Shown here: in pieces, positions 339-22,174 of the stretch
Position numbering within the stretch: position 1 is the first letter of the stretch
Layout: each line of letters starts with the position of its first letter
The notes under the pieces: model-generated
Database searches by the model: none
What the model saw: the letters and a program-made list of their open reading frames with translations, nothing else
Told to the model about the DNA's origin: nothing
Assembly (NCBI GenBank): GCA_030390025.1
Contig: CM059431.1
Span: 128,466,001-128,530,000 of the forward strand
Length of the DNA: 64,000 nucleotides
Reading direction: 5' to 3'
Source: Squalus acanthias
Taxonomy: Eukaryota
Program-made: the position numbers and the translations under genes

Positions 339-404
339 CAGCTCCAGTTTGGAAAGAGCTGAAGTTAATGGAGGGTGGAGATGGGAGGCTGGCCAGGAGA
401 ACAA

Positions 405-1118
405 TGGGTGTCCTTGTACATGAGTCACTGAAAGTGAATGTGCAGGTGCAGCAAGCCATTACGAAGGCAAATGTTATGCTGGCCTTCATTACAAGAGGAT
501 TTGAGTACAGGAGTAAAGAAGTCTTACTCCAATTATATAGGGCCTTGGTGAGACCACACCTGGAGTACTGTGTACAATTTTGGTCTCCTTATCTAAGGAA
601 GGATATACTTGCCATAGAGGGAGTGCAACGAAGGTTCACAAGATTGATTCCTGGGATGGCGGGACTGTTGTATGAGAACAGATTGAGTAAACTAGGCCTG
701 TATTCTCTTGAATTCAGAAGAATGAGAGGGGATCTCATTGAAGCATACAAAATTATTACAGGGCTTGATAGGGTGGATGCTGGGAGAAGGTTTCCCTTAG
801 CTGGGGAGTCTAGAACCAGGGGCCACAGCCTCAGGATAAAGGGTAGGCCATTCAGGACTGAGATGAAAATAAATTTCTTCACACAGAGGGTGGTGAATCT
901 TTAGAATTCTCTACCCCAGAGGGCTGTGGAGGCTCAGTCATTGGGTATATTCAAAACAGAAGTCGATAGATTTCTGACTAGTAAGGGCTTCAAGGGATAT
1001 GGCGATAGGGCCGGTGAATGGAGTTGAGGCAGAAGATCAGCCATGATCTCATTGAATGGCGGAGCAGGCTCGAAGGGCCGAATGGCCTACTCCTGCTCCT
1101 ATTTCTTATGTTCTTATG
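405..1118 (+). mobile_element. CR1 LINE, 5'-truncated 3' fragment
   Basis: ORF2 C-terminal motifs LYRALVRPHLEYCVQFWSP, RMRGDLIE, FFTQRVVNL; 3' tail TTCTTATGTTCTTATG. Confidence 0.9.
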
Positions 1119-1839
1119 AATCGTCAATCTGGAGGTGACAAAGACATGGATGAGGTTTTTGTCAGCAGCTGGGTTGAGGCAGGCCGACACGAGTAATGTT
1201 ATGAAGGTGAAAATAGGCAGTATTTGTGCTGAGTGTGGACATCAATTATTGTATTCTATGTTCTTGATGTGTGCTAACATTCGGACATGGAAATTAATAA
1301 TTGTAATGTTATAACCACTGGTTTCATGGGAAATTATAATTTATACTGCAGTGTCTCTTGAAGAGAATGAAATCAACCCCTGGAGATCAAAGCACACTAA
1401 CTGGTAGGGTTTATACTGTAGCAATTGTGGTAAAATACAGTCCATGCCAACTTCACCCAGCTATAAACCTGCCAGCATAAGTGGGCTAATACTGTTTATA
1501 ACTTCATTTTTTGAAGGAATCTTGTTTGGAATGAGTCAGAGCCGCCAATTAAAAGGAAATCATCATTATTCTTTCTTGTTCTCTGACTAATTAAATTGGA
1601 ATCACTAAACCAAAGGGTACACAAGGCATTATGATCAATTTGATGTTTTGTCACATACTTTTTCAGCGTTCGTGCCTCGGAGAAGTTTGAGTGAAAAAGT
1701 CAATATCTGTGTAGGTTAAGATGAAGCGATTTACTTTTCACTTCAAACAGCAATGTAATTGGGGAAATGTTTCCTTATTAGCCCCAGAGAATATCACAAC
1801 ATCATTGGATGCGAAATAGGGCACAATTGGAGGAGCAAC

Positions 1840-2838
1840 TATATGCTGCCTCTTGGCGACATCATCTGAAAGCACAGTGTCAGGTTCCACATGTACGCTG
1901 ACGACACCCAGCTCTACCTCATCACCAGCTCTCTCAACTCCTCCACGGTCTCTAAATTGTCAGTGCTTGTCTGACATCCAGTATTGAATGAGCAGAAATT
2001 TCCTCCAACTAAATATTGGGAAGTTCAATTGTCTTCGGTCACCGCCACAAACTCCGTTTCTGAGCCGCCAACTCCATCCCTCTCCCTGCTGGCAACTGTC
2101 TGAGGCTGAACCAGACTGTTCGCAACCTTGGTGTCATATTTGACCCCTAGATGAGCTTCTGACCACATATCTGCACCATCACTAAGACTGCCTATTTCCA
2201 CCTCCGTAACATTGCCTGATTCGGCCCCTGCCTCAACTCATCTGCTGCTGAAACCTTCATCCATGCCTTTGTTACCCACTAGACTTGACTATTCCAAAGC
2301 ACTCCTGGCTGGCCTCCCATCTTCCCCCTCCATAAACTTAAGCTCATCCAAAAGTCTGCTGCTGCTGCACGTAACCTAACTCGCACCAAGTCCCATTCAC
2401 CCATCACCCCTGTGCTCAGTGATCTAATTGGCCACTGGTTAAGCAAAGCCTCAAGTCACCCTTGTTCTGAAATTCCCCCCATGGCCTCGTGCCTCCCTAT
2501 CTCTATAACCTCCTCCAGCCCAGAACCCGCCGAGATATCTGCACTCCTCCAATTCTAGCATCTTGTGCATCCCCGATTTTAATCACTCCACCAATGGCGG
2601 CCGTGCCTTCAGCTGCTGAGGCCCTATGCTTTGGAATTCCCTCCCTGAACCTTTCCGCCTCTCTACATCCCTTTCCTCCTTTAAGATGCTCCTTAAAACC
2701 TACCTCTTTCACCAATCTGCCCTAATATCGCTTTATGTGCTTGGAGTCAAATTTTGTTTGATAACACTCTTGTGAAGCGCCTTGGGACATTTTATTATGT
2801 TAAAGGCGCTATATAAATGCAAGTTATTGTTGTTGTTG
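1840..2838 (+). mobile_element. L2-type LINE, 3' fragment (degenerate)
   Basis: YADDTQLY at ~1893; 3' end GCGCTATATAAATGCAAGTTATTGTTGTTG; homologous to the copies at 32690-35130 and 43575-44380. Confidence 0.8.
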
Positions 2839-3642
2839 GATATTGAAAATTGCGGTTTGGAAAAGTATTATTTTGTTGCACAGGCACGATAAAGTTTCAC
2901 CTTTATTGACAAAATAGGAAAGGCACATTCTTTTGCCATATTGTTTAGCCAAATTTTTGACCAAGTATAAAGAATTCATCCCTTGCCTCCATGGGTCAGC
3001 CTGCTGAAACTGTCCAATATTTTAAATGTTGTATTTGGATTTTCAGCGACTATTGCTATGTTTTCTGATGGTACAGATTCAGAAATATAGACAAAATATG
3101 CTCAAGGATGAGAGAGAGAGAAGTTGCAACAAATTCTGATTGTACCATAATGGCTGATCGTATCTCTCACCTCAGAAAATTAGGGAAGGTACAGTAGGCA
3201 GATGAGTTGCAAACTGCACTTGTTCTATGTTTTTCTGGGCGCTGTGAAATACAAACTGATCAGTTTCCTTGGCACCCAGGGCCTGAGATGGTATTATTGA
3301 ATCACTTCCTAAAGCAGTTCTGTAATACAAACATTCCATAATGAGACAATCAGTACTGAAAATCCCTGGTGATGAATTCTGCTTTCATTAGGACTACTTC
3401 AATGGAGATTATATGTAGCTAAAAACAGACAGATAATCTCTGCTATGCAATGAATAAATAAAACACGGATATTGTTTACCTCCAGAGATTTTCTAATCTA
3501 GTACAAGACTCATTATGCTCTTAGTGACAATTAGATTTGCTTTCCTTTAGTGGGTTACATATAAGGCATGTTCTGTATACTCTTTATTGGCATGTTCTAT
3601 TATGTAGCGATGAAGGCTGTGAATAATGTTTATGGAGACTAT

Positions 3643-4550
3643 GGGCTCGATTTTAATAGCCCCGAGGAGGCAGGTTTGGAGGCGGGTCTGTTGGAAAAAT
3701 TGGGAACAATGGCTTCAGACACCCAACCTGCCTCCATCCCGCCCCCACCCGATTTTCCTGAGTGTCTGTTTAGCTGCTCCCAAACTAACCCGTCTCCAAC
3801 CGGTGGGACAGGTATTTAAGGTAGTAAACAGCCTGTTAACTGCCTTGCTAATCCTATTTTCATCATGGTTTCCCATTTTCCTGCTTCTGGCTCTTGTTTC
3901 CCGACTAGTCAGAAACAGGCCAGGTTCAAGGAGACGAGTTGCTGGAGGACATGATTTGTATGCATTGGTGGAGCACTTTAAAAGCGCCCCTGAAACATGG
4001 CTGACATTCAAATGCAACAACTTTGCTGTTGTAGGTATGGGATAAGATTTTGCACGTCTACTGACCTTGTGACTGTTCAAGCTGACACCCATCTGCAGTG
4101 TGTCATGAATGGAATTATTTCAGGCCACTTCGACTGTGCGCTTGCAATATTGTTACCTCAAATGAAATCTATAGCAAGGGATGGGAAACATTTATGCCCT
4201 CTCATCCTGTTCCTCATAATCAGTGGAGTAGCAGCCCCGTGGCTCACCACAAATCTTCCTGGGCAGAGGAGTAGGAGTAGGACGAGGGGAGCCTTGCATG
4301 CCCTGTTGTAACTAATGCAGCATCTTTCCAGTCCACTGTTGCTCGTCAACCAGGGTATGCACACTGCCATGCCACACTACCATAAGCTTACTCTTTGACC
4401 AAAGGTGGCCACCTTTTCGCTCTGTAATTGCAGGTGACACTTGTCCAATGTCATACTTCATCTCTGCTAGACCCTCGTATTTCCTATCACTTTTACCATC
4501 AGCATTACAAATGTAAGTCGCTCTGAGCCCTCAATAAACTTTTGCCATTT
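3643..4550. mobile_element. Possible decayed Harbinger-derived non-autonomous element
   Basis: Starts GGGCTCGATTTT, like other GGGC..AATTT termini in this window; no matching right TIR found. Confidence 0.3.
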
Positions 4551-4553
4551 CCC

Positions 4554-6370
4554 AGAACACATAGAAACATAGAAGATAGGAGCAGGAGTAGGCCATTCGG
4601 CCCCTCGAGCCTGTTCCGCCATTGAATGAGATCATGGCTGATCATCCAAATTCAGTACCCTGTCCCTGCTTTCTCCCCATATCCCTTGATCCCTTTAGCC
4701 TTAAGAAATATATCAAACTCCTTCTTGAATATATTTAATCAATTGGCCTCAACTGCCTTGTGTGGTAGAGAACTCCACAGGTTCACCACTCTCTGGGTGA
4801 AGAAATTCCTCCTCATCTCAGTCCTAAATGGCTTACCCCTTATCTTTAGACTGTGACCCCTGGTTCTGGACTCCCCCGCCATCGGGAACATCCTTCCTGC
4901 ATCTAGTCTGTCTAGTCCTGTTAGAATTTTATAAGTTTCAATGAGATCCCCTCTCATTCTTCTAAACTCTAGCGAATATAAGCCTAATTGACCCAATCTC
5001 TCCTCATACGTCATTCCTGCCATCCAAGGTATCAGTCTGGTGAATCTTCGCTGCACTCTCTCCATGGCAAGAACTTCCTTCCTCAGATAAGGTGATCAAA
5101 ACTGCACACAATACTCAAGGTGTGGTCTCATAAAGGCCCTGTACAACTGTAGCAAGACATCCTTGCTCCTGTACTCAAATCCTCTCGCTATGAAGGCCAA
5201 CATACCATTAGCCTTCTTAACCGCCTGCTGCACTTGCATGCTTACCTTCAGCAACTGGTGCGCAAGGACACCCAGGTCTTGTTGCACTTCCCCTTTTCCC
5301 AATCTATTGCCGTTCAGATAATAATCTGTCTTCCTGTTTTTGCCACCAAAGTGGATAACCTCACATTTATCCACATTATACTGCATTTGCCATGCATCTG
5401 CCCAATCACCCAACCTGTCCAAATCATACTGGAGTTTCTCGGCATCCTCCTCACAGCACACACGCTCACCCAGCTTTGTGTCATCTGCAAACTTGGAGAT
5501 ATTACATCTAGTTCCCTCATCTAGATCATTAATATATATTGTGAATAGCTGGGGTCCTAGCACCGATCCCTGCGGTACCCCACTAGTCACTGCCTGCCAC
5601 TCGGAAAAACACCCGTTTATTCCAACTCTTTGCTTCCTGTCTGCCAACCAGTTCTCTATCCAAGACAGTACCTTACCCCCAATCCCTTGTGCTTTAACTT
5701 TGCACGCTAATCTCTTATGCGGGACCTTATCGAAAGCCTTCTGAAAGTCCAAATACACCACATCCACTGGTTCTCCCTTATCTATTCTACCAGTTACATC
5801 TCAAAAAAGTCCAGTAGATTAGTCAAGCATGATTTACCTTTTGTAAATCCATGTTGACTTTGTCCGATCCTGTCACTGTTTTCCAAGTGCTCTGCTATTA
5901 AAACTTTTATAATGGACTCGAGCATTTTCCCCACTACCGATGTCAGACTTACCGGTCTATAATTCCTCATTTTCTCTCCACCACCTTTTTTAAATAGTGG
6001 GGTTACATTAGCTATCCTCCAATCCATGGGAACTGTTCCAGAGTCCATAGAATTTTGGAAGATGACCAGCAATGCATCTACTATTTCTAGGGCCACTTCC
6101 TTAAGTACCCTAGGATGTAGATTATCAGGCCCTGGGGATTTATCGGCCTTCAATCCGTCAATTTCCCTAACACGATTTCCCTATAAATACTGATTTCATT
6201 CAATTCCTCCCTCTCATTAGACCTTATGTTCCCCGACATCTCTGGGAGGTTATTTGTGTCCTCCTTTGTGAAGACAGAACCAAAGTATGTATTCAATTGG
6301 TCTGCCATTTCTTTGTTCCCCATTATAAATTCCCCTGATTCTGACTGCAAGGGACCTACACTTGACTTCA
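4554..6370 (-). mobile_element. CR1 LINE, 3' half (RT region, disrupted), interrupted by the provirus
   Basis: YLDFQKAFDKV, GVPQGSVLGP, KFADD, RPHLEYCVQF; the sequence continues seamlessly at 22175. Confidence 0.93.
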
Positions 6371-7977
6371 TGTAAGGGTTGCGTGTCTCAGACGGTGCTG
6401 GTGCGAGGTTAGGCCTTTGTTGCCTAATACCATTGCTTGCTCTGGTCTCCGGCCAGCCTTATTGCAATAAGCACCTGTGAGTGGTTCGACCCACTCGTAC
6501 TTACGGTTCTAACACTGGACTTAGGTGCAGGGAGCAGTAATGCAGAGAAAACTCAAATAGACCAGGTTGAATAGTACAAAATGGAAATCTTTATTGCATA
6601 GCGTCCAAAATCATGAAGTACATGTCATAGGCGCAAATTAACGAGAGTACAAGTATACATACATTCATAAAGCTTGGTCTATGGAAATGAAGAACACACG
6701 GCACATCATAGAAAGGGGAACACATTATATCTTAACCTTAAAAACCACCCTCCCTTAACAATACCTACACTACGTCTAGATTTGTAGGATCTGAAAACAT
6801 GCTCACCACTCGTGTTACTTCGGAGAATTTTAAAGTGAGGCACTCAGCTCGTTTCGCTGCAGCGCCTGACTGTCACGTGTTTGGAAGGGTCTCTGTACCC
6901 CACTTGTTTATTTTCGCTGCTGCGACAAGCAGGCCAGACTCCCTGTTGTCATGAAGAACTCGACGGACCTCAGACACAGTTCAAAGAAGAGTCTTCCTGT
7001 GCTCGATACCGGTTGTCGGTAGATTTCAATGAAAAGTTCTTTATTTATATTTTCGGGCGCGGTCGGGGTTTACTGACTGTGGCGGCACGTGGATTCTTCT
7101 CCTTTTCTTCTCGTCTCATCTCGTCTCTTCAGGCCTCCGGGTCCAGACACCGTTTACCGACACTCGGGATGGTGCACCCTGTTACTTGCCCTTGTCGGGG
7201 CGGCTCGTTCCGATTGAGCTCCACCCAACACTCCAATTACCGACCAGTACGGCTAAGAGTCAAGAGTCAACAAAGTCCAGAGAAAACACAAAAGTCCAGC
7301 CCTAAGAAAGAGCTTCAGCAATGGTCCGCTGAGAGATAAGAGACTGATGGACATTTGTTGTCTATAGTTATAGTGCTGTGTTCCCTTATCTCCCGCTCAA
7401 ATCTTAATGTTTGTCCTTTGTGTAATATTGGCGCTCAAAACTCCCAGCATGGGGCGATTCTTCTCTCTAACGGGTTTCGGTAGCACCTGAAACTGGCCAA
7501 CTATCCGTTAATGTTTTCCCCATTGTTGGTCCAGCCAGTAGTCTCCCTGACTGGTTTTGGGGCCTCCCCGAATACTGACTTAATCACCCGTCAATGTCTC
7601 TCTCATTGTAGAGCCGTGGGGGTATTTGTGTATTGATGTGTCTGGATGGGCCTTCGATTGCCCAGTACAATGATCCTTACTTGTGCATGGAAAACGATTC
7701 CAGCACTTATATCTTTGCTATTGTTCCAAATGCAAACGGGTTGCATCCTGTCTTTATCAGTGTTTACCGAGTATGCTCCAATCTTATATTGAATGTTTAT
7801 TCGACGCCATCTTGTCTGCCCACTGTATTTCTGGAAGCTTCTGCCACGATGCGCGGCGGCCATTTTACAGGCTTCTGTGTCCTTTATTTTCAGGACAGCA
7901 TTTTGTTTAATAAAACTGATCAAACGAGTCTGCTTCTCTCTCGTTATTTTGAATCACGATAATTGCGAAACTTTACA
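6371..7977 (-). repeat. 3' LTR (1607 bp)
   Basis: TGTAAGGG...CTTTACA; direct repeat of 19822-22174; minus-strand AATAAA at ~6590 and TATAA-like motif at ~7370. Confidence 0.95.
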
Positions 7978-7989
7978 GTCCCTCCTGTT
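7978..7989 (-). promoter_or_regulatory. Polypurine tract
   Basis: Minus strand AACAGGAGGGAC directly abuts the TG of the 3' LTR. Confidence 0.75.
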
Positions 7990-8374
7990 GATGCGAATAA
8001 CTCCGCTTATCGTATCAATTAAAAATGGTGGTGAGCAAAATTATCCCGATTCTCCACATCCAAACACTCCCGGTACTTAAACTATCTATGGCCTCCATGC
8101 AGTCCTCATTTCCCAGGGAAATTACATTGTCTAAACTTGGACAAATCATAGGCAACATTGCCTTTAAACTTACACTGCGTATACGCCTTCCAGGTGCAAA
8201 AGGCCGATGCCTCTTGCACCACCTGTATATGCATGTTTTATTATACAAGGAAAAATAATCAAAACAACTATTTTAAAAAAAATACAAAAGTTCCAAACTT
8301 AGTTACACATACTCATAACTAATAACAATTACAAAAACACACATGGTAAAATGGAGCGGCGTCATCCTGGCCGT

Positions 8375-10711
8375 TTACGCGGTACTTTCTTTGTTCACGC
8401 GCACGTAACGTTCTCTCCACTCCCCTGTGTTCTCCTGCTTTGTGAGGCGTTTGCCTCTTTTGCAGTGTCCGACTAATAGGTACACTACAATTACGACTTG
8501 ACACACTACCAAAATGTGGGAGGCTATCCTGATCTATGAAGGAACTTCAATATTATTGAACAGATCCCACCACGGTGGGATTACTATGTCCAGTATCTCT
8601 GTCCCTATCTCTACAGTCTTTTGTTCCAGGGTGTAAAAATGTTTCTGTGATACCATGACGGCTTTTAAAATCTTGGTGAGGTGTTCAGGGAGAGGGGGAA
8701 TGATGTATCTGAAATGCGCGACGAATCGCTGCAAGTCTGTGAAATTCTCTTTTACAGTGAGGTGAACAGTGGATGGTTCAGGGATCGGGACAATTCGCTG
8801 TTGTGCCACTTGAACTTCAGCCCTGGGTTTAAAACAGAAACTGCTGTCACTCACCGGACACCGGCTGTGCTGTCCATGCTGGTAGTGTTGTGCTGCAGTG
8901 GTAACGCAATACGTTCCACCCCCTATGTATGCCACCTGCGGAGGTACATGATCTTGTGTCATTGCTTCCATGGTGCAATTCATGGGTTTCGCGCTAGCCG
9001 TTCTGAACCCGCATTGTGGTGTTAAAAAGGCATTCAAGTGCTGGGGACACAGGATGATGTGTGCTCCCCGGGCACGACAACCTGTCATCGTTTGCTCCCA
9101 GCGGATGACGTAAGGTGGGACCGCTGCGTAGCGAATGTGGGCTCCCCCCTGAATGACACCAATGTTCTCCACCCGATACACCGGGGCGGGCTTTGCTGTG
9201 TCGCCCAACTCCGGCATCCGTAGTACTATACCCATGATGGTATGATTTGACCGTCCGCAGTCCACGGGGACTGGGTATGCCTCTGAGGCTAGCCTGAGCT
9301 GGCACGGGCTTAATGCGTTCTGAAAAGGGTGGAGCACCTGCAGGTGTTTGTTACTTATCCAGGACGGGACCAAACCTTGTTTTAAATCCTCCAAATTACT
9401 GCGGCCCTCGCCCAGTAACCACGCCCCGTATAGTACGCACACCTCGTTCTGCGCAGCTTGATCGGATGCGTTCCGATCTTCCCTGATCAGGGCACTTACC
9501 GTTCTCGCATGCTACTCCAGCTCTGCTATAATCTCTTTTAAGTGTAGTGTCATGGCCTGGTCCTTGTGTAACTCAGACCCTACTAATGTGTTTTCGCTTG
9601 TGAGGATGCTTTTTAACTGTGTTTTTAAACCGTTGATCTGGGTCTGCAGCTCCACGTTGTCTAGAGCGTTGACCACAGATGTTCCCGTATTAAAAGCAGT
9701 GAACACATCATTCACAACACCCCTTCTTTTTCTCCCCACCTGACCCAAAACTTCGTGTGGTGTGGTGTACAAGCTTGTTTTGTCAACCTCTGCAAAATCA
9801 AACTCATAAAATTGCCTGAACATGTTTGTTAACAGGACCTGGTATAATTGTTCCGTTTCTTTGGGACACCACTCTGGTAAATGCACCTCGGTGAGGTTTA
9901 GTATCACCGAGGCCACCGCGTAATGTACCCCCTGATACAGTATCTGATCTGTTGGCACCAGTACCAGACCATTCCCGGGCCCCTTAGTGGCTTTAGGGCA
10001 CCCTTCCTCCTGAGCCAAAGCCACCGGAATCGTGGGTGGAGACTTGCGTGGGCGCGTGATGAGTTCAGTGGCGTTTACCGGGATCGGGGAGAATGGAGCT
10101 CCGCACCCCTTTGTGCTGACATCCCACCTCATCCCTTTCCCGTTATCCTGCCACTGGTGTACGAAAAATATGGATATACCCTTGGGGCAAACGTACTTCG
10201 ATCCCCACATACAAACATATATTCCCTCATCCGGTTCCCACCATTTGTCCCAACAGACTTGCAATTGTCCGTTAGTCCCCGTAATTGTCCGATGGGTATT
10301 GTTACCCAATCGCTCGCACTCAGCCGAAGAATTTCTCATAGTCTTGCTTAACTTCCGTAACCACCACCATCGGCTCAATGGGACCTTCCCATTGCATGTC
10401 AAACAAATCCTTTTGCCGACGGTGACGCTGATTCTGGGTGCAATGATCCTCACTCTGGGGCACAGCAAAGAAGTCTCTTTGTAGGCAAATTCGGATGCCC
10501 TGGAGTATTCCGTCGAATTCGTTCCCAGCCATCCCGGCCACCTTCCCTTGTGGAAATAAGTGGCGGTTTCCTCGACCTCTCGCTCCCCGGTCCCATCCGT
10601 CGCGATGGGGCCCGTGTCCCCGGAGCAACCGAACACAACGACATCCTTGGTGAGGCCCCGATAGGCCAATCCATATCCGATCATTGCGAGCACTATCAGA
10701 ATCCTTTCCAT
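8375..10711 (-). pseudogene. env: env: class I fusion glycoprotein (~778 codons; in-frame stops at 9512-9514 and 8534-8536)
   Basis: One frame throughout: signal peptide MERILIVLAMIGYGLA, furin site RKRR (9722-9733), heptad LDNVELQTQINGLKTQLKSIL, Cys-rich region, TM IASHILVVCQVVIVVYLLVG after the second stop, basic cytoplasmic tail. Confidence 0.88.
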
Positions 10712-11431
10712 CTTTCCTGGTTCCTGTGATCAGATAAAATGATGTAGCCAGCCTCCCAAGAGTCTCTGGCTTTTGTGAAGGGTGAGCGGGTCCCTTGACC
10801 TCGTCTCACGTAAAAAGACATGTATGCTGGATAGACTTTAACTATTCCTATCACTAACTCCCATCATTTTACCATTTACTTTTAAAAATAAACTACAATC
10901 TTACCAAACTTAAAACACTATGGGGGAAAAATTCAGTTGGTTGCGCCTCCCATTAGCGCCTTAAGAGGGCGCTAATGGGGCGCAAAGCAGCTCGGGCCCG
11001 GGCGCAGCGATGTTTGCGCTGCTCGCGAACTTAACTAGACATTTTGTGGCGGCGCTAAACTTTATCGCCGCGATCTCCTGCGCGCGCAGATTGTGACGTC
11101 ATACGAGAGTGCAACGCCCTTGTGACGCCCCGGAGCAGAATTTCTGTGGCGCCCCCATCCTTACCACCTGGCGCATCCAATGACCGGAAGAGTGGATCGC
11201 TAACAATCGCTGTGGGGCTGGGGGGGGCGCTATTTAAAGGTGGCCTCTTCCTGTCTTTCTCTGTGGTTGACATTTTTGCACCACTCGTTCTGAGAGAGAG
11301 AGAGAGATTCGGAGAGAGAGAAAGAGAGACTTCTGCATTGAGTCAACGCTGTGTGAGTTAGTTTTGGCTACTCATCCTAACTTCGCTGGTACTTTGGTTT
11401 CTGGCCTTCATAACTTTGCTTGCTAAGAGAT

Positions 11432-12461
11432 ATGGGGGCTGCACTGATGGGGGGCGTCGTCCTGCGCCAGCTGAATCGGAGGAGACAGAGACGCAGAGAG
11501 AGAGTGGCAATGATGGCCAGACGGAGGAGGGCCAACAGGCGTCTGTACAGGAGAGCTTACTCTCCCAGGGTACATCGTGAACAGCTCTCCTACATTCATA
11601 TGTCTGATGAGCAGTGTCTGCGAAAATGCGCTTCAGCAAGGAGGTGGTCACTGAGCTCTGCCATCTGCTGCAGCCAGATCTGCAGCCTCAACTGAGGTCC
11701 AGGACGTCTCTGTCTGTGGCAGTGAAGGTCACAGTGGCTCTGAACTTTTATGCTACTGGCTCATTTCAATCTGCTGTTGGGGACATCGCCAATATCTCCC
11801 AGTTCGCGGTGCATTGCTGCATCAGGAAGGTCACAAATGCCCTCTTTAAAAGGAGACGAGAGTTCATCTCTTTCCCCATGACCCCAGATAAGCAGCAAGA
11901 ACGCGCTCTGGGCTTTGCGAGGATAGCGGGCTTCCCCATGGTGCAGGGCGCCATTGACTGCACGCATGTGGCTTTGTGTGCTCCGCATGAGAATGCCGAG
12001 GATTTCCGGAACAGAAAGGGGTTCCATTCCTTGAATGTTCAGTTGGTCTGTGACCACAGACAGCTGATACTCGCTGTCAATGCCCACTATCCTGGCAGCT
12101 GCCACGATGCTTTCATCCTGCGCCAGACTACTGTGGCAGAACTTTTCGAGGCACCGCATCAGCCATTTGGTTGGCTTCTCGGGGACAAGGGGTATCCACT
12201 GAGCACCTGGCTGATGACACCACTCCGTACGCCCAACACCCCTGCTGAGCTGCGGTACAACGAGAGCCATCAAGCTACCAGGAACATCGTGGAGCACACA
12301 ATCGGCGTGCTCAAGCAACGGTTCCGCTGTCTCGACCATTCTGGAGGAGCCCTGCAGTACTCGCCTGAGCGAGTTTCCAACATCGTAGTTGTGTGCTGCA
12401 TGCTGCATAACATGGCAATCCTCAGGACCCAGCCAATGCCACCAGGCCTTGGAGCACCACC

Positions 12462-12492
<31 letters not shown>

Positions 12493-12591
12493 GAGGAGGA
12501 TGATCAGCAGCAGCACCAAGGCGTGAGGGCGGCCCACAATGGTGAAACTGCAAGGGCCGTCCGTCAGCGGCTGATAGCAAGCCGCTTCTAG
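11432..12591 (+). pseudogene. Harbinger DDE transposase (HARBI1-like), one frameshift at ~11623
   Basis: GAIDCTHV, YPGSCHDAFIL, LLGDKGY, VEHTIGVLKQRFRCL, CCMLHN, acidic tail; adding one A in CGAAAATG joins the two ORFs. Confidence 0.9.
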
Positions 12592-12902
12592 GCCCCTGCT
12601 GTGGAAATGGCTTCTGCCATTGAGAACAGCATGAATGAACCCAACACGCAACCCCTAAGCCGGCCAAGGCACCAATGATTCCAAACACCAAACATGTATA
12701 TTTTGAGTACCAAAACTTATTTATTTTACAAACTCTGTGTGTGTCATTTCTTCATGACAAACTCATACAAATAAACACAAAAAAACAGTAATTACCATAA
12801 CTGGTTCTCACAACCTGGAGATCATGTGCAAAACACTCAACAAAAGTTTGACCACGAACCTCGGCCTTTAATAAAAAAATGACCAGCATTTTGTCACACC
12901 TC

Positions 12903-14746
12903 CTACATCGAGGGTGAACTCCTTCCCGTGCGCCTTTCCCCCCTTCTTACCCTACTGCTCCTCCGCAATGGGACCTCAGTGGCTGCAGCAAGGCTGGTGG
13001 AAGGCTGCTGACTGTCAGGCCCTGACAATGCAGATGCCCTTGAGGGACGGCCTCGACCAGTTCTGGGCCTGGAGGGCCCGGCTGCAGACTGCACCAACTC
13101 TGCATGGGCGGCAGCAGTCTGTCCTACAGGTGGTGGCAACTGCAGTGGAGAAGTGACAGTGGTGGCAGCAGGAATGCTGTCATCTTGAGCGAGGACAGCA
13201 ACTCCCTGCTCGACCGGCACACTGGCACTCCCACGGGGCAGCACCTCAGCATCCGGAGCAATCTGCTGGAGCACAGATTGCTGGCCTGCTGCGGCACGGT
13301 GAGAGCCCCGGGGAAATGTGAACGAACCAGCGAGGATGGTAGCAGACAGTGCTCGCGTGACCTCAATCTGAGTCTGCATGAGAGCAGTCTGAGATTGAAT
13401 TGCAGCACTGAGCTTCAGTGTCGCATCCGCCTGCGTTGCTGCGAAGTGCTCCACACTCCTTGCCAGTGCTTCAATGCATTCGGGCACCCTACCCACTGCA
13501 GCCATGAGCTCAGTGTGCATGCCCACCGCCTGGGTGTTCATTTCCGCGATCAGCCGCTCCTCCTCTGCGTCCAGTGCAGCAGGACTCGCTGGCATACTCT
13601 CCCTCCGGGGAGAAGGCCCCCGAGCTTCCCTACCCCCATCGCGTTGCTGCAGCCCGCTGGGTCCTGGAGCTTCACCCTCATCAGACCCTTCCCCCCTGCT
13701 CCCCTCCAGGGAAGGCGTGTTCCCAGTGTCGGCATGGGCTTCCTCGGGAGAGGGTGGCACTGATGCTCCGGCTTCCTCTTCCTCCTCGGCTGCAGCTTCA
13801 CTCCCACTGGCAGCTTCAGGGCCCGTCTCCTCAGCTGGTGAATCACCATCTGAAAGCAGGGAGGTACAAGAGTGGCTTTAGCGTGAGGACAGGGTGGCAG
13901 TAAGGGAGGAATAAGTGCAGCGAGTTAGTAAGTTGGATTGAAAGTGTCAAAGGCTGGTGTTGTGAGGGACAAGTGGAAGGACAGAGGACAAAAAGGTGAT
14001 GACCTTACCATTGCTGTCCAGAACGGGGTCGGCGTCTCCAGTGGTGACGGGACCGATCACTCGGCTTGCCACAATCCTGTGGACGCGCTCCTCAAGATCG
14101 CTGAGGGGTTGCAGCTGAGGCCGCCCTCCACCCGTCCGTTGCTGCTGTCTCCTATTATGCGCCAGCTTGGCCTGCAAGAAAAAGGACGGCGTCTGAGTAA
14201 ATATACAGCCATGGTCTTGCCTGATGTGCCTCCCATAGGTGAATAGCCCTTACTGTATACAGCCATGGTCTTGCCTGATGTGCCTCCCATAGGTGAATAG
14301 CCCTTACTGTATACAGCCATGGTCTTGCCTGATGTGCCTCCCATAGGTGAATAGCCCTTACTGTATGCAAAGTATGGAATGTGTGTGTGTGCTTCATGAA
14401 AGGGCCATAGGTGTTGGATGAGTGTTGTGCATTGGGGTTTTAAGACCCTCTGGCCATAGAGTGAGCTTGAGATGGAGGGATGGAGAGGTATTGCAAAAAA
14501 GCCACTTACCCTGACGACCCGAGTGAGGTCGTTGAACTTTTTCCGGCATTGGACATGGGTCCTGGGCACCATGCTCCTGGAGGAGACGCGCTGAGCCACC
14601 TCCCTCCACACTCTTCTGTAGTCGCGCGGCAAAGGCCTCCTGCCACTCTCTGGGTACAGTATTGGTCTTCGGCGCTCCACCGCGCCAACCAGAGCATCCA
14701 AGGCCCGCTCGGTGAAGCGCTCAGCTCGTTCTCTCACCCTCTCCAT
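12903..14746 (-). CDS. Harbinger Myb/SANT-like DNA-binding protein, 3 exons (14746-14510, 14171-14009, 13849-12903), 448 aa
   Basis: RFTERALDALV...W..VA..V...RT..QCRKKFNDL, then TGGG; canonical GT-AG sites join the exons in frame (237+163+947 nt). Confidence 0.82.
14203..14366. repeat. 54-bp tandem repeat x3 in intron 1 of the Myb-like gene
   Basis: ATACAGCCATGGTCTTGCCTGATGTGCCTCCCATAGGTGAATAGCCCTTACTGT at 14203, 14257 and 14311. Confidence 0.95.
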
Positions 14747-15167
14747 CCTTGGCTGGAAAATGGATTCACAGGTCTCTCCAGGCCGAGATTCAAGGCTGCA
14801 ATGAGCAGGGTGTGGCTGGGGAGCAAGATCGCCCCCCCACTTTAAGAACTGGCCGGCGCCAGTGTGTCTGTGTTCCCTCGCTAACTGGCAGCACCTTCGC
14901 TGCGCTCGCGCTCTGAGTTAGCGCCTCACTCCTCGGCCTTTGCGCCTTAAGACAGGTGTGCAGCGCCTGATTTAGCACTCCAATTACCTCCCGGGGCGTT
15001 AAAAGTGAAGTTTCCAGTCAGTGGCGATAATTAGCGCCAGGAGCTAATTTTTGTGCCCGGACGATATTTGCGCCCCAGACGGGGCGCGACTGAATTTTTC
15101 CCCCCTATAAACTTAAACTTATCCTAAACTTAACTGTACTGCGCCGCCCGTTCCCTGGGCGGCCTAG

Positions 15168-18100
15168 CTAAATTCTGCGAAGTCTGCCACGAGCTTTTCC
15201 CAGTGGCAGGGGGGCACTGACCTCTTCCTTTGATCTGCCGCAGCCTGTCGCCGCTTCGCTGGGACTGGGATCTCCCTGGGCTGCCTTGAACTTATGCCTG
15301 GGGGTGTGCAAGGGATTTGGCCACAACTTCCTGGGCTGGGGTGTCCGACTTGACCTACGGAGGGCTACCTTGGGCAAGATTTCCAGGGCCGACGGATCGG
15401 GAACCGAGACTTCCACTGTCACGGCCTGTGGTCCCACCACAGCCGCCGGCTCCGTCTCTCCTGGCTCCGCCCCCCTGAACTCGGGATTTGCAGTTTCTGA
15501 CTCCACCCTACTTGTCTCTCCAGTATGTGGACCTCCACTCGCAATCCCTATCTCCCCTATGGGCAAGACTTCCAGGACCGACGGACCGGGCACCGAGACT
15601 TCCACCGTCACGGCCTGTGGTCCCACCACAGCCGCCGGCTCCGTCTCCCCTGGTTCCGCCCCCCTGGGCTCGGGATCTGCAGTTTCCGACTCCACCCTGT
15701 GTGGAACTCCACTCGCAGTCCCTATCTCCCCTAAGCTTGGGTCGAGGGCGAAACCTTCGTCCTCCGACCCCACCACCTCTCCGACCGGGTCACTACCTTG
15801 GTCGAGCTCTCCGAGCTCTTCCTCATCTGAATCCCAACCCCAAGAAAAGATCCTACACTTTTCCAGAATGTCCTCTCCCCTCAAGCAGGCTGCTTTACCG
15901 GTCTGTGTGCCCTGCGGTTCTACCCGGGGCTGAGAGTCCCCACTCGCAGGTTTGGCCCCTGTGATTGGCCCCTGTGCACCCGGTTTATACAGCTTGCACT
16001 GGTTAATGTGGAACCATTTTGTGCGCCGGGGTACCTTCACGGCGTACACCATGGGACTCGCCTTATCTACAATACTGTAGGGTCCCATATACAGCGGTTC
16101 CAAACTCCCTACTCTGGCATAGTTCCTAACCATGACCTGATCTCTGACTTCCCACTCCTGCTTCTTACGGGGTTCCAACAACAGGCGATTGTCCTGGTGC
16201 TGTCTTCCCATGTTCCCAGCCGCCTGCTCGTAAACCTGCTTCAGGCGTTCCAAGAGGGTCTGGACAAACTTGTCCCTTTTCACCTCTTGGAGCTTATCCT
16301 CAGTGAGCACCGGGGCTAGTACATGGGTGGGGGTTCGCATGATCCTCCCAGTCATCACCTCGTACGGGGAATACCCCGTACTCTTCGACTGGCTAGCCCG
16401 GATCCCCATGAGGACCTCCGCCCATTTTTGGGGCGAGTTCATAGTCTCTTTCCTCAGTTTCTCCTTGAGGGTCCGGTTCATGCGTTCAACAATCCCTGAT
16501 GACTGGGGATTGTGCGCTACGTGCCACTTCCCTTCAATGCCCAAAAGCATGAGGGTGTTCTGCATCACCTGGCCAGTGAAATGACTCCCTTGGTCTGACT
16601 CCACGAAACGGGGGAGTCCCCACCGCGAGAACACTTCCCGGACCAAGATCTTGGCAGTACCCAGCGCCGTAGCTGTTCTACAGGGGAAGGCTTCTACCCA
16701 TTTGGAAAACACATCCACCAAGACGAGGCAGTATTTGTAGCCTCCCTGGGTGGTGGGCAGGGGCCCTATGTAATCGATCTGTATCGACTGCCATGGTCCC
16801 TCCACCCTCCTGATGTGTCCCATGTGCACTTTCCTTTTCTGGGGGTCTGGGTTGTTTGCAGCGCACACAAGACAGCTTGCACAGAACTCGCGGACCTGCT
16901 CCCTGAGTCCCGGCCACCATCCCGCCTGCTCTACCCGTTGCCAGGTAACCTCAGGCCCGGGGTGTCCTGCCCCCGGCCCCTCATGAGCCAACTGGAGGAA
17001 CTCCCTCCTGTGCTGCTGCGGCACAACTCACTGTTCCTCGCGGAACAGCATGCCTTCTTTAACGGAGAGGGTTGCCGTACTGTACGGGCCCTCTACCTGC
17101 TTGCCCTCAGTAATCGTTCTGAGAACTGCTTTTAGGGCGGGATCCTGGTTCTGGACGGTCTTAAGGTCTAGGGGCAGTGCTACCCTGGTGTTCCCGGGAT
17201 TCCCTTCCCTGCCTTGGATCGCTGCCACGGGTCCGGGTCCATAGGGGTCCCAGAAAATGCCGTTACGGGCACCCTCCCTGGCTAGCGCATCCGCCTGCTG
17301 GTTGCCCTCCCCGCGGGGTTCTGTGGAGGAGTGAGCTTTCACCTTATGGATGAAAATCTCTCCTTCCTCCCCTACTGCTGCTGCTAAGATCTTTTCCAGC
17401 AAGGGCTTCACCGTTAAAGGTCGCCCGTCCGCGGAGGTGTATCCGCGGCGGGACCAAATGGCCAGGTATTCCGTACACGAATTGCACGTAAACATACTGT
17501 CCGAACAAATCGTGTATGGGGTTGGGAAGATCTCTGGGTGGGTAACTACATACGCCACCGCAGACAGCTCAGCCTGCTGCGCGCTCATCGTGCTGGGGAG
17601 TTTAATTGCCAGGGCAAGGTCTGCCGCAGGGTCATAAACTCCACACCCTGTGAGTCGTTCGCCAGCGGACACTGTGCTGGAACCATCAACATAAATCTCG
17701 CGACCTGTGGGCTGTATCCCGGCCCGCAAACCTATGTTGACCTCCCACACCCCTTCCACCGAACACCGGTGGGCTGTTCCGGGGTACACCAGGTTGGCCG
17801 TGAGCTTGGGCTCGCAAAGACCTTTAACTCTAAGATCCATCTGGGAGAGGAGAAGGGTCCAGCGCGCAATACGAGCGCTGCTTACGGTCCCATCCTTAAT
17901 CCTCCCATCCAGAAGCATCTTGGTTGTCGTGTGATGGGTGAGGAGAGTGATGGGAGAGAGCCCTGTGAAGATCGCTGATCTTTTCACAGCCCAATGCGTG
18001 GCTAAAAGATGTCTTTCGCAGCTGGAAAAACTACTCTCCACATCCGTTAACACCCTGGATGAATAGACAACCGGCCTCAGCTTGCCGTGACGCTCTTGGA

Positions 18101-19751
18101 GCAGCACAGCGCTCAAGCTGTCCCCGCTGGCAGCTACCTCCAGGAAAAACTCCTTCCCCCCATCTATGGCCCCTAAAGCTGGCGCGGTCTGCAGATCCCT
18201 TTTTAACTTCTCGAATGCTGCCTGACAACCCTCGTCCCAAGACCACTCCACTCCCTTATGGAGGAGTCGGAGCAGCGGAGCTGCTGTGGCCGCATAGTCC
18301 TCGATGAAGTCTCTACAGTAACCGGTCAGTCCCAGAAAGGACCTCACACCCGTTATGGTGTTGGGAATCGGTAACTCCTGCACCGACTCCCTCCTAGCCT
18401 TATCTATGGCTCTTTCCCCAGCGCGAATGGTCAGACCCAGGAATTTTACTTCCTGCTGACCGATCGCTGTTTACTTAGGGTTAACTTTAAAACCCTTTCT
18501 CCCTAGCAGCTCCAATAACTCGGCTAACAGTGGTCCATGCTCCTCCCTTGAGTCCGTGAACAGGAGCAAATCATCCACGTACTGCACTATCTGATTGGGC
18601 TGACTAAACTCCTTTAAACTTCCTGCCATACACTGATGGAAAATACTGGGGCTGTTGTGGAAACCCTGTGGCAAACAGTTCCATGTGTACTGTTGTCCTT
18701 TGAAAGTAAAGGCAAACTTGTACTGGTCCTCTCGCCGCAGCGGGATGGACCAAAAACTGTTCGAGATATCCAGCACTGTGAACGTGGTCGCGGACGCTGG
18801 GATACTCCCTATTACGTCAGCAACTGCTGCTACTGTGGGCGCGCAGGCGGGGATGTTACTGTTAAGGACTCTGTAGTCCACCGTGGCCCTCCACTAATTA
18901 TCCGGGTTCACGTGTGTGGCTATCGGTCTCAACACGCCCTGCTGCACCAATGAGGACATTGCTGTCTCCATGTCGGGTTCTGCTTCTTTGGGGAAGTTAT
19001 ACTGCTATTGGGGCCGGGTCATGGGGTCCCCGTCTATGCTGACCTCAAACCCGGTAACCCTCCCACAATCGTGCTTGTGTGTTGCAAATGCGTGCATATT
19101 ATCTGACACGTACGCTTGCATGTCCGTTGGGACATCTGCGACCATAAGCTCGAGGTCGTATCCTCCGGATGGCTTCATGGTACACAGGGCCCCTTTACCT
19201 TCCTTCCCCGGGACTACAACTACCTTGCCTTTCCCACCCTTGGCTCCCCAGAGACAGTGATTCCTAAGGTCCACGAGGATCCCGTGTTCCGCTCGGAGAT
19301 CCGATCCGAGGATACCTCTGCCACCCCCCTCCTGCCATTTCATCAGTATGCACTTCCATGTGGTGTGGAGTGCTCCTAAATGAATGGAGAGCGGAATGGA
19401 GAACGCACCAGCCTGCTCTTTTCGAGTGAACCCCGCTAATGTGAATGGGACCTTGGTAGACAGTGGTGAGTCAAAGGGGCTATCCGTATGAATCACGGTG
19501 CATGAAGCTCCCGTGTCCAACAAATAACTACCCTTCTGCTTCTCTACCTCCATCTCAACCAGGGGTCTTTTCCACGCATCATAGCTGAGCGGACACAGGT
19601 AGACGGGCTGCACGGGCTCTAGCCATTGGGTACTGGTGGACGGGGTTGTGACATCTGTGGGGCCGGTAGCGACTGCCACCCTCCCTTGCGAAATCATAAG
19701 GGACCGCATAGCTCCCAACATTGATTCTATCGCATCGGGATGGATAGGCAC
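15168..19751 (-). pseudogene. pol: pro-pol (PR, RT, tether RH, RNase H, IN), single frame with four internal stops
   Basis: LLDTGAS; LPQGFHNSP and YVDD; YVDGSS, SAQQAEL, SDS, VKAH, GNQQADALA; HHCC, IDYIGP, SDQG, VERMNR, GPY; stops at ~19005, ~18895, ~18471 and ~17028. Confidence 0.93.
15370..15735 (-). repeat. Tandem duplication (~60 codons) in the integrase C-terminal extension
   Basis: GEIG.ASG.PH...RVESETA.PE.RGAEPGETEPAAVVGPQAVTVEVSVP occurs twice. Confidence 0.9.
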
Positions 19752-19798
19752 ACCAGCTCCTCTCTAAGGGTCTAAAACATTACTCTCCTGCTGACAAT

Positions 19799-19816
19799 GT
19801 CCTGCCGCGGTCGCCA
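19799..19816 (-). promoter_or_regulatory. Primer-binding site, tRNA-Ser-like
   Basis: TGGCGACCGCGGCAGGAC lies 5 nt after the 5' LTR; resembles the complement of vertebrate tRNA-Ser 3' ends (TGGCG.....GGCAGGA), imperfect. Confidence 0.65.
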
Positions 19817-19821
19817 TTTTC

Positions 19822-22174
19822 TGTAAGGGTTGCGTGTCTCAGACGGTGCTGGTGCGAGGTTAGGCGTTCGTTGCCTAATACTATTGCTTGCTCTGGTCTC
19901 CGGCCAGCCTTATTGCAATAAGCACCTGTGAGTGGTTCGACCCACTCGCCCTTACGGTTCTAACACTGGACTTAGGTGCAGGGAGCAGTAATTGCAGAGA
20001 AAACTCAAATAGACCCGGTTGAATAGTACGAAATGGAAATCTTTATTGCATAGCGTCCAAAATCATGAAGTACATGTCATAGGCGCAAATTAACGAGAGT
20101 ACAAGTATACATACATTCATAAAGCTTGGTCTATGGAAATGAAGAACACACGGCACATCGTAGAAAGGGGAACACATTGGGCCGAAAATTGATCCCGGGA
20201 CGCGAGAGTACGCACTGCGTACTCTCGCGTATTCCCACTCCAATTGCCGGTTTTCTGCATGCCCTGCGCATGCGCTGAAAACCGGCAATTGCTCTTCTGA
20301 AAAGGGGGCGGGTCCTCGGTGCATCGCGTGCGCGCTACAGGCTGCGCGCACGCTGTGCACTTCATACTTTGGATGCGCAGGTAAGTACTGAAGATTTTGG
20401 AAATGTAAAAAGGAGGAGTAAGACCCACTTTTAAGAAGGTAAGTAGTGAATTAAGTATTTTTTGAATTTTTTTTAACAGGTATATCTTTTTTAGAGACTT
20501 TAAAGACAGGTAAGTTTATTTTTATAACTTTTTAAAAGATTTTTAATTTTTTCAAAAATTTAATTTTTTATTTAAAATGGTTAATTTAATTAACTATACT
20601 TATTTTATAAATGTGATGGTTTTTTTTTTAATTTAATTGAGGTTTAGCTGTTATTTTGGGGGGGTGTAAGATTCATAGATTTCACAGCAGGTCTGTGAAA
20701 CTTATGAATGGAAGATGGTGTGCTGCCATTGGCTCTAACTGAGTCACGTGATCCCACAGCTCGCACGAATTCACTACGCCGGTGGGATACGCAAGCACTG
20801 CACAGCAGCTGTCCAGAACATCAAGTTCGTGCGAGCTGGATCTGAAAAAGCACAAGCGAGGTGAGACATCGCGGGGAAGGCTTACCCCCGCGGGAACAGA
20901 GCGAGATCAATTTCTGGGCCATTATACCTTAACCTTAAAAACCACCCTCCCTTAACAATACCTACACTACGTCTAGATTTGTAGGATCGGAAAACATGCT
21001 CACCACTCGTGTTACTTCGGAGAATTTTAAAGTGAGGCACTCAGCTCGTTTCGCTGCAGCGCCTGACTGTCACGTGTTTGGAAGGGTCTCTGTACCCCAC
21101 TTGTTTATTTTCGCTGCTGCGACAAGCAGGCCAGACTCCCTGTTGTCATGAAGAACTCGACGGACCTCGGACACAGTTCAAAGAAGAGTCTTCCTGTGCT
21201 CGATACCGGTTGTCGGTAGATTTCAATGAAAAGTTCTTTATTTATATTTTCGGGCGCGGTCGGGGTTTACTGATCGTGGCGGCACGTGGATTCTTCTCCT
21301 TTTCTTCTCGTCTCGTCTCGTCTCTTTGGGCCTCCGGGTCCAGACACCGTTTACCGACACTCGGGATGGTGCACCCTGTTACTTGCCCTTGTCGGGGCGG
21401 CTCGTTCCGATTGAGCTCCACCCAACATTCGAATAACCGACCAGTACGGCTAAGAGTCAAGAGTCAACAAAGTCCAGAGAAAACACAAAAGTCCAGCCCT
21501 AAGAAAGAGCTTCAGCAAGGGTCCGCTGAGAGATAAGAGACCGATGGACATTTGTTCTCTATAGTTATAGTGCTGTGTTCCCTTATCTCCCGCTCAAATC
21601 TTAATGTTTGTCCTTTGTGTAATATTGGCGCTCAAAACTCCCAGCATGGGGCGATTCTTCTCTCTAACGGGTTTCGGTAGCACCTGAAACTGGCTAACTA
21701 TCCGTTAATGTTTTCCCCATTGTTGGTCCAGCCAGTAGTCTCCCTGACTGGTTTTGGAGCCTCCCCGAATACTGACTTAATCACCCGTCAATGTCTCTCT
21801 CATTGTAGAGCCGTGGGGGTATTTGTGTATTGATGTGTCTGGATGGGCCTTCGATTGCCCAGTACAATGATCCTTACTTGTGCATGGAAAATGATTCCAG
21901 CACTTATATCTTTGCTATTATTCCAAATGCAAACGGGTTGCATCCTGTCTTTATCAGTGTTTACCGAGTATGATCCAATCTTATATTGAATGTTTATTCG
22001 ACGCCATCTTGTCTGCCCACTGTATTTCTGGAAGCTTCTGCCACGATGCGCGGTGGCCATTTTACAGGCTTCTGTGTCCTTTATTTTCAGGACAGCATTT
22101 TGTTTAATAAAACTGATCAAACGAATCTGCTTCTCTTATGTTATTTCGAATCGCGATAATTGCGAAACTTTGCA
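19822..22174 (-). repeat. 5' LTR, containing a 742-bp MITE
   Basis: Collinear with 6371-7977 except for the insertion at 20179-20920. Confidence 0.95.
20179..20920. mobile_element. MITE (Harbinger-type) inserted in the 5' LTR
   Basis: TIRs GGGCCGAAAATTGATC / GATCAATTTCTGGGCC; TSD ATT; absent from the 3' LTR. Confidence 0.88.

Follow-up and report, generated by a model that had tools for sequence, protein, structure and literature searches.

What kind of membrane-fusion protein was encoded by a broken envelope gene in the genome of Squalus acanthias, and what kind of retrovirus carried it? This question is raised by a stretch of 64,000 nucleotides (NCBI GenBank assembly GCA_030390025.1, contig CM059431.1, positions 128,466,001 to 128,530,000 of the forward strand), which was analyzed at its full length and is called the window here. 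On its minus strand, the window contains an envelope gene (env), which an initial annotation made from the letters alone had described as a complete F-like class I fusogen hidden by two point stops. Our results make it probable that the gene belonged to a now dead endogenous retrovirus (ERV) of cartilaginous fishes, a member of a snakehead retrovirus (SnRV)-like branch which carried a class Ib F-type fusogen instead of a gamma-type Env. All positions are those of the window, and papers cited by PMC or bioRxiv number are represented by the portions of their text available to us.

The env reading frame

The features of the env frame are listed below. P0013 is an unbroken natural relative for which a structure model was made; pLDDT is the predicted local distance difference test score of that model.

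8375 to 10711, minus strand: env, a frame of 778 codons with its ATG at 10711 and its stop at 8375-8377; 47 relatives were matched at E≤1e-3
10178 to 10462, minus strand: probable Ig-like (V/I-set) domain, about residues 84-178, from sub-threshold but concordant searches
9722 to 10000, minus strand: F2-like segment, residues 238-330, ending in a tetrabasic furin-type site (9722-9733); the matching P0013 segment (from residue ~189) aligns to the first F strands
9662 to 9721, minus strand: putative fusion peptide, assigned by position; weakly hydrophobic by hydropathy
9440 to 9661, minus strand: heptad region A, modeled as long helices in P0013 and interrupted in the window env by the first internal stop (9512-9514)
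8790 to 9439, minus strand: Cys-rich beta domains, equivalents of F domains I/II; 30% identity to P0013, whose equivalent has pLDDT ~80-95 and aligns to F
8375 to 8789, minus strand: linker, heptad region B, membrane-proximal Trp pair, second stop (8534-8536), transmembrane (TM) segment (about 8462-8527) and tail

The frame is interrupted by exactly two in-frame stops, at 9512-9514 and 8534-8536, and the remaining five frames over the same span contain 22 to 48. When the bases were shuffled (n = 2000), no shuffle had two or fewer internal stops (mean 38, minimum 23). A single frame of about 778 codons running across two point stops was thus borne out. The first unbroken piece is 399 residues counted from Met, and the middle piece is 325 residues from stop to stop, or 302 from its first GTG by hand count, which reproduces the division into 399 and 302 residues noted earlier from the list of open reading frames (ORFs).

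The order of the features was also as first described, that is, an F2-like strand followed by the cleavage site, fusion peptide, heptad, Cys-rich block, second helix, Trp pair, TM segment and tail. The cleavage site ends at residue 330, and the subunit behind it, estimated beforehand at about 450 residues, was measured as 448. The furin-type site, fusion peptide, heptads and TM segment stand in order and, with this long C-terminal subunit, make up the hallmarks of class Ib. Hydropathy averaged over 19 residues peaked above 1.5 at the TM segment only (residue 729), and the mean Kyte-Doolittle value of the first 20 residues after the cleavage site was 0.82 in the window env and 0.13-0.87 in six relatives.

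The description of env as complete held for the order of features and not for its wholeness, since a further in-frame gap of 5 codons lies near 9080. This gap was seen against three of the four close relatives spanning the site (P0003, P0005 and P0099) and not against P0006, whose alignment begins about there; contigs of one public run were likewise 5 codons longer than the window env at this place. Similarly, the extent first given, 8375 to 9980, covered the C-terminal part and left out the first ~244 codons (9981-10711), which contain the probable Ig-like domain.

Fold of the envelope and its N-terminal module

Neither Pfam nor PDB had a match at E≤0.001 when searched with the window env as a single sequence. 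Evidence on the fold was obtained from its relatives, using the model of P0013 and an alignment made up of P0050 and 30 of the 47 relatives (31 sequences). P0013 and the window env are 27% identical over residues 233-752 (E = 6e-45), and both unbroken window pieces align to P0013 (E = 4e-34 and 1e-12). Most of residues 180-250 and 370-600 had a pLDDT of about 80-95 in the model, while its N-terminal 178 residues were not confident.

When the P0013 model was compared with PDB by Foldseek, the top match was the F protein of human parainfluenza virus 3 (hPIV3; E = 2.5e-11), and all listed rows were paramyxovirus or pneumovirus F. VIA-align of P0013 with post-fusion Nipah F gave a Z of 11.6 and a root-mean-square deviation (rmsd) of 5.4 A with 288 aligned residues over residues 190-610, starting from the F2-like strand. 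F proteins occupied 49 of the 50 VIA rows, and the remaining one was a foamy Env (Z 8.4). The profile of the 31 relatives, which uses sequence only, matched an F0 at E = 5e-4. Among the matches in BFVD were a granulovirus (baculovirus) F (E = 1e-12), lispivirus glycoproteins, the Envs of walleye epidermal hyperplasia virus (WEHV1; E = 1e-8) and walleye dermal sarcoma virus (WDSV; E = 4e-7), and feline foamy Env (E = 3e-6).

A lack of structural similarity to any F protein had been named beforehand as a refutation of the F-like assignment, and similarity was found. That is, the P0013 model appears F-type from the F2-like strand to the Cys-rich end, and the term F-like holds for the window env because this intact relative folds like paramyxovirus/pneumovirus F. 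These results support, at the level of a structure model, the assignment of the window env family to class Ib, the paramyxo/pneumovirus-F-type fusogens, in whose core fold domains of both subunits are nested. The modeled likeness to hPIV3 F (1ztm), Nipah F (8dmj) and respiratory syncytial virus F (3rki) extends from the F2 strand through domains I-III. In contrast, the sequence identity is 9-14%, and these F proteins have no N-terminal module and use a separate attachment protein.

Further BFVD matches of this model were the glycoprotein of a fish filovirus (E = 6e-14) and herpesvirus proteins that are uncharacterised, from abalone herpesvirus (E = 3e-10) and ranid herpesviruses 2 and 3 (E = 1e-5 and 7e-5). 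When the family alignment or P0051 was the query of a word-indexed search, P0013 and P0051 were the only matches; these searches have low sensitivity and do not show absence.

In front of the F core, residues ~84-178 probably form an Ig domain of V/I type. The segment has Cys106, a Trp about 12 residues later, Cys167 (61 after the first Cys) and a tyrosine-corner pattern. Its closest sequence matches were Pfam Ig_3 (E = 0.15), antibody light chains (E = 0.43-1.6) and the CRTAM IgV domain (E = 0.14). Structural matches were weak (Foldseek E≥0.027; VIA Z≤5.9, rmsd ~3 A over ~85 residues; model mean pLDDT 37.6). The relatives point weakly in the same direction, P0013 being called 'Ig-like' in UniRef and P0037 matching V-set at E = 0.045.

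The intact protein may have worked as follows. Behind a signal peptide, the Ig-like module would, judging from its position, bind the receptor, and the F2-like strand would remain part of the fusion core. Cleavage at residue 330 would be by a furin-type protease, and the refolding of heptad A would propel the freed fusion peptide to the target membrane. Heptad B would then zip back along heptad A, drawing the membranes together as in F and foamy Env. The window copy itself cannot work in this way, because its first stop would end the protein in the middle of the heptad.

Polymerase lineage and the origin of the envelope

The provirus is 15.8 kb long (6371-22177), and its viral parts other than env are as follows.

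6371 to 7980, minus strand: 3' long terminal repeat (LTR), 1610 bp, with TG...CA ends; 97.5-97.8% identical to the 5' LTR
7981 to 7993, minus strand: purine-rich tract (PPT) adjoining the 3' LTR, read from the sequence
15168 to 19763, minus strand: end of gag and the pro-pol frame (protease, reverse transcriptase, tether, RNase H, integrase); 931 of 1107 residues identical to P0052
19799 to 19816, minus strand: primer-binding site (PBS), like that of elephant-shark CmiERV lineage I by eye
19822 to 22177, minus strand: 5' LTR, interrupted at about 20176-20920 by an inverted-repeat element of 745 bp

The LTRs, PBS, PPT, protease, reverse transcriptase (RT), tether, RNase H, integrase and env are all present and gag is largely deleted, so that the layout is that of Retroviridae. 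An errantivirus of the Ty3/gypsy group was ruled out by the anatomy of pol, which has a tether and a second RNase H (RNase_H E = 3e-20), and by the grouping of its RT with retroviruses. Errantivirus and baculovirus F resemble the window env in their F-type ectodomain, as the granulovirus match indicates, and F-type ENV has been published for errantiviruses (bioRxiv 2023.10.26.564294); however, the errantivirus ENV is carried by Ty3/gypsy elements of invertebrates. Thus, from the initial suggestion that the long subunit fits paramyxovirus/pneumovirus F1 or errantivirus/baculovirus F, the F-type fold stands and the errantivirus does not, the element being a true retrovirus.

In the RT tree, which held 22 of 23 pol sequences after one short match was dropped and whose references are mostly unnamed, P0052 served as a proxy for the window pol. 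It grouped with gamma/epsilon, retroviral-type pols at a support of 0.993, apart from P0054, a sequence called Loki-like by eye. The RT is 53% identical to P0053, 36% to P0054 and 31-42% to class I types, and it carries the retroviral form of the RT motif, while all eight lokiretrovirus RTs compared carry a gypsy-like form. A search for pol relatives in viral contigs found none.

These RT data bear on the reading that the element is a lokiretrovirus, which would be the first in cartilaginous fishes. An F-like retroviral Env has been published for this group (Wang and Han, PMC7947760), and the window provirus shares with it the dual RNase H, the LTR-gag-pol-env order and an F-related Env with signal peptide, furin-type site, fusion peptide, coiled coil and TM segment; the Loki ectodomains also begin with a similar motif by eye. 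In contrast, the RT is non-Loki in identity, in motif and in its place outside P0054 in the tree. The Loki Envs compared lack a long N-terminal extension and have a strongly hydrophobic fusion peptide, whereas the window env has ~230 extra N-terminal residues with the probable Ig domain and a polar fusion peptide. No smc gene was seen, and the available text of PMC7947760 reports lokiretroviruses in none of six chondrichthyan genomes. The lokiretrovirus was the initial lead and was dropped on the RT evidence; we regard it as very unlikely.

By eye, the RT resembles those of SnRV and of CmiERV lineage I, and the PBS and PPT also resemble those of the latter, which shares a cartilaginous-fish host (PMC4422223, PMC6001957). 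SnRV-like ERVs are already known from such fishes (Han, PMC4422223; Xu et al., PMC6001957; PMC4977317; PMC8922424). We consider it likely that the window virus belongs to the SnRV-like branch (clade Huo/class III). The tree contains no named SnRV or foamy reference, and the best PDB match of the RT core was a foamy RT (E = 6e-22).

The last two points weigh against the favored reading, 'SnRV-like' being a call made by eye, and several others from the envelope are to be set beside them. A Pfam fusion family was absent above the cut-off in the window env and in all 27 relatives scanned, the best being Baculo_F at E = 0.0011. The fold was taken from a relative of 27% identity and not from the window's own F core, and the P0013 model had a predicted TM-score of 0.46, TM-scores of 0.28/0.46 and a large rmsd in many rows. 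Moreover, the signal peptide has no hydropathy peak above 1.5 and the fusion peptide is unusually polar. Finally, the evidence for the Ig domain is below every threshold, and the N-terminal model is poor.

The foamy match leads to another reading, in which the element is a fish foamy-like virus (clade Tu), a group whose Env is also F-like and has been published as class Ib (Fernandez et al., PMC11468914). The foamy Env among the fold matches and the long LTR agree with it, and foamy Env likewise joins a retroviral F-type core to an added receptor-binding module, a role that the N-terminal module of the window env may share. However, no Pfam foamy family was matched in env or protease, the fold is nearer to F than to foamy Env by the VIA scores, and the RT is nearer by eye to SnRV and CmiERV lineage I than to foamy RTs. 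The added module also differs in place: the foamy receptor-binding domain is inserted between the subunits, whereas that of the window env precedes the F2 strand, the position given for the coronavirus spike (PMC11468914). We judge the foamy-like reading to be improbable and retain the SnRV-like one.

The comparison with CmiERV lineage I is informative for the history of the envelope. Its env, when the DNA in the supplement of PMC4422223 is translated by eye, is gamma-type, with an immunosuppressive-domain motif, CX6CC and a TM subunit of ~200 residues, whereas the window env is F-type with its much longer subunit. The two thus carry class Ia and class Ib envelopes on similar polymerases, and this points to an envelope swap.

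It may also be considered that F-type Env is ancestral across fish retroviruses (epsilon, SnRV-like, foamy and Loki) and that the gamma-type env of CmiERV lineage I is the replacement. The matches of the P0013 model to the walleye and feline foamy Envs speak for this; however, they are matches to predicted models, with low TM-scores (0.14-0.25). A literature search for a link between walleye epsilonretrovirus Env and the F type gave the foamy paper only, whose available text is silent on the walleye viruses. We lean slightly against an ancestral F-type Env. It is compatible with our explanation of the locus and would alter only the direction of the swap.

Decay of the provirus, a conserved shark frame and neighboring elements

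Copies of the retroviral family were sought in four public runs. The contig records on the provirus region numbered from 360 to 14,664 per run and were mostly 90-99% alike, and it follows that the family has many copies; contig depth yields no copy number. At the second stop (8534-8536), more than 99% of the depth differed from the window copy in all four runs. It had been stated that copies sharing both stops would speak against the fusogen, and the second stop was nearly absent elsewhere, which makes it a private lesion of one among many copies. At the first stop (9512-9514), a residue is present in four of the five relatives spanning the site, and P0002 is gapped. One contig of run X1 skips most of env (8584-10823), suggesting env-deleted copies.

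The lesions of the provirus are spread over its genes. The pol frame contains four stops (first bases 19007, 18896, 18473 and 17030), an 8-residue gap in RT and a 4-residue gap in integrase. Only ~35 nt lie between the PBS and the pol frame, and gag has therefore been almost wholly deleted; two transposon inserts are present. The LTR pair differs by a Kimura two-parameter distance of 0.0228 over 1610 sites, which corresponds to 5 million years (My) at a mammalian rate and to 52 My at the shark rate of PMC4422223.

The initial annotation had raised possible exaptation, and one may ask whether the window env now serves the host as a functional protein, by exaptation or by readthrough of its stops. 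Its lesions are fewer than those of gag, and the family is present in a run which may be RNA, a status that is a guess. A search of public runs listed none of RNA type that contains the family, a result without bearing on expression. In contrast, the stop density of env (2 in 778 codons) is on a par with that of pol (4 in ~1530), and instead of an intact ORF amid decay at a single conserved locus we found two stops, an extra in-frame gap and many copies. Exaptation was not supported at this locus, and we hold it to be extremely improbable. The window env is the gene of a dead ERV copy that has decayed neutrally since insertion, that is, an ordinary dead copy.

A different picture was obtained for three relatives. 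P0013 (bamboo shark, Chiloscyllium punctatum), P0051 (catshark, Scyliorhinus torazame) and P0098 (bullhead shark, Heterodontus francisci) are unbroken F-type env-like proteins of 739-754 residues. The accessions of this group are XP_072333160.1, XP_067889054.1 and GCC29952.1. They are 85-88% identical without internal gaps across three shark orders, which split well over 100 My ago. Their conservation peaks in the F core and reaches 88-100% in the Cys-rich core, and they group closely in one clade (support 1.0), which is distant from the window family. From sequence, this fits a candidate domesticated F-type envelope gene. Viral cross-species spread would also give high identity, and broken viral copies reach 72-76% across orders.

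Among the 47 env relatives, 23 were looked up and 19 of these were named (16 from sharks or rays, two from frogs and one from an eel), the closest named one being a skate protein at 76%. In P0007, P0008, P0011 and P0036, env-family pieces occur in one protein with host domains (Niban-like, C2H2 zinc fingers, cadherin, F-box), and these joins are candidates for gene-model fusions or exonisation.

In the literature searched, from which subscription papers and bioRxiv supplements were outside the scope, no F-type Env in an SnRV-like virus, no Env combining Ig and F parts and no captured F-type shark env was found; on gamma-type Env, receptor domains of Ig-like type have been described (bioRxiv 2024.03.17.585361). 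We offer, with more doubt than belief, the following proposal. An Ig-like attachment domain with an F-type machine may constitute a fifth retroviral envelope layout, which may have spread by envelope swapping with SnRV-like viruses in sharks, rays, frogs and eels, and one member (P0013, P0051 and P0098) may have been domesticated in an ancestor of galeomorph sharks, a syncytin-like capture of class Ib.

What gives the finding its significance is the lineage, together with the probable Ig module and the ORF conserved in sharks, and not the two stops. F-type envelopes would be extended beyond lokiretroviruses and foamy viruses to an apparent third retroviral branch. The window family and CmiERV lineage I form a close pair with different envelope classes, which bears on the origin of retroviral env, for which PMC7947760 sets out four scenarios. 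F has been viewed as a minimal scaffold to which receptor-binding parts are added (PMC11468914), and the N-terminal module agrees with this view. A screen for captured env genes that depends on gamma-type motifs, as in the available methods of PMC12813294, would miss the whole family, including the conserved shark ORF.

Two other mobile elements adjoin or interrupt the provirus.

5099 to 6370 (RT half) and 22178 to 23349 (endonuclease half), minus strand: CR1-type long interspersed nuclear element (LINE); RVT_1 E = 2e-21, Exo_endo_phos E = 3e-11
10922 to 15104: PIF/Harbinger DNA transposon between pol and env, 4.2 kb, with 16-bp terminal inverted repeats

The insertion of the provirus split the LINE, with a 4-bp target duplication. 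The PBS is of a type that we take to be tRNA-Ser, and no tRNA genes were found in the window. Behind the integrase domain there is a Pro/Glu-rich tail with two ~189-bp tandem copies (15371-15733). The 745-bp element is present in the 5' LTR only, is 68% like a copy at 23327-23919 and shows a short 3-bp duplication by eye. The Harbinger element encodes a transposase at 11611-12591 on the plus strand (DDE_Tnp_4 E = 5e-41) and a Myb/SANT protein at 14057-14917 on the minus strand (Myb_DNA-bind_5 E = 9e-9). Its transposase frame is uninterrupted over 326 codons, related ends lie at 57111-58006, and its terminal sequence had a very high depth in the public runs.
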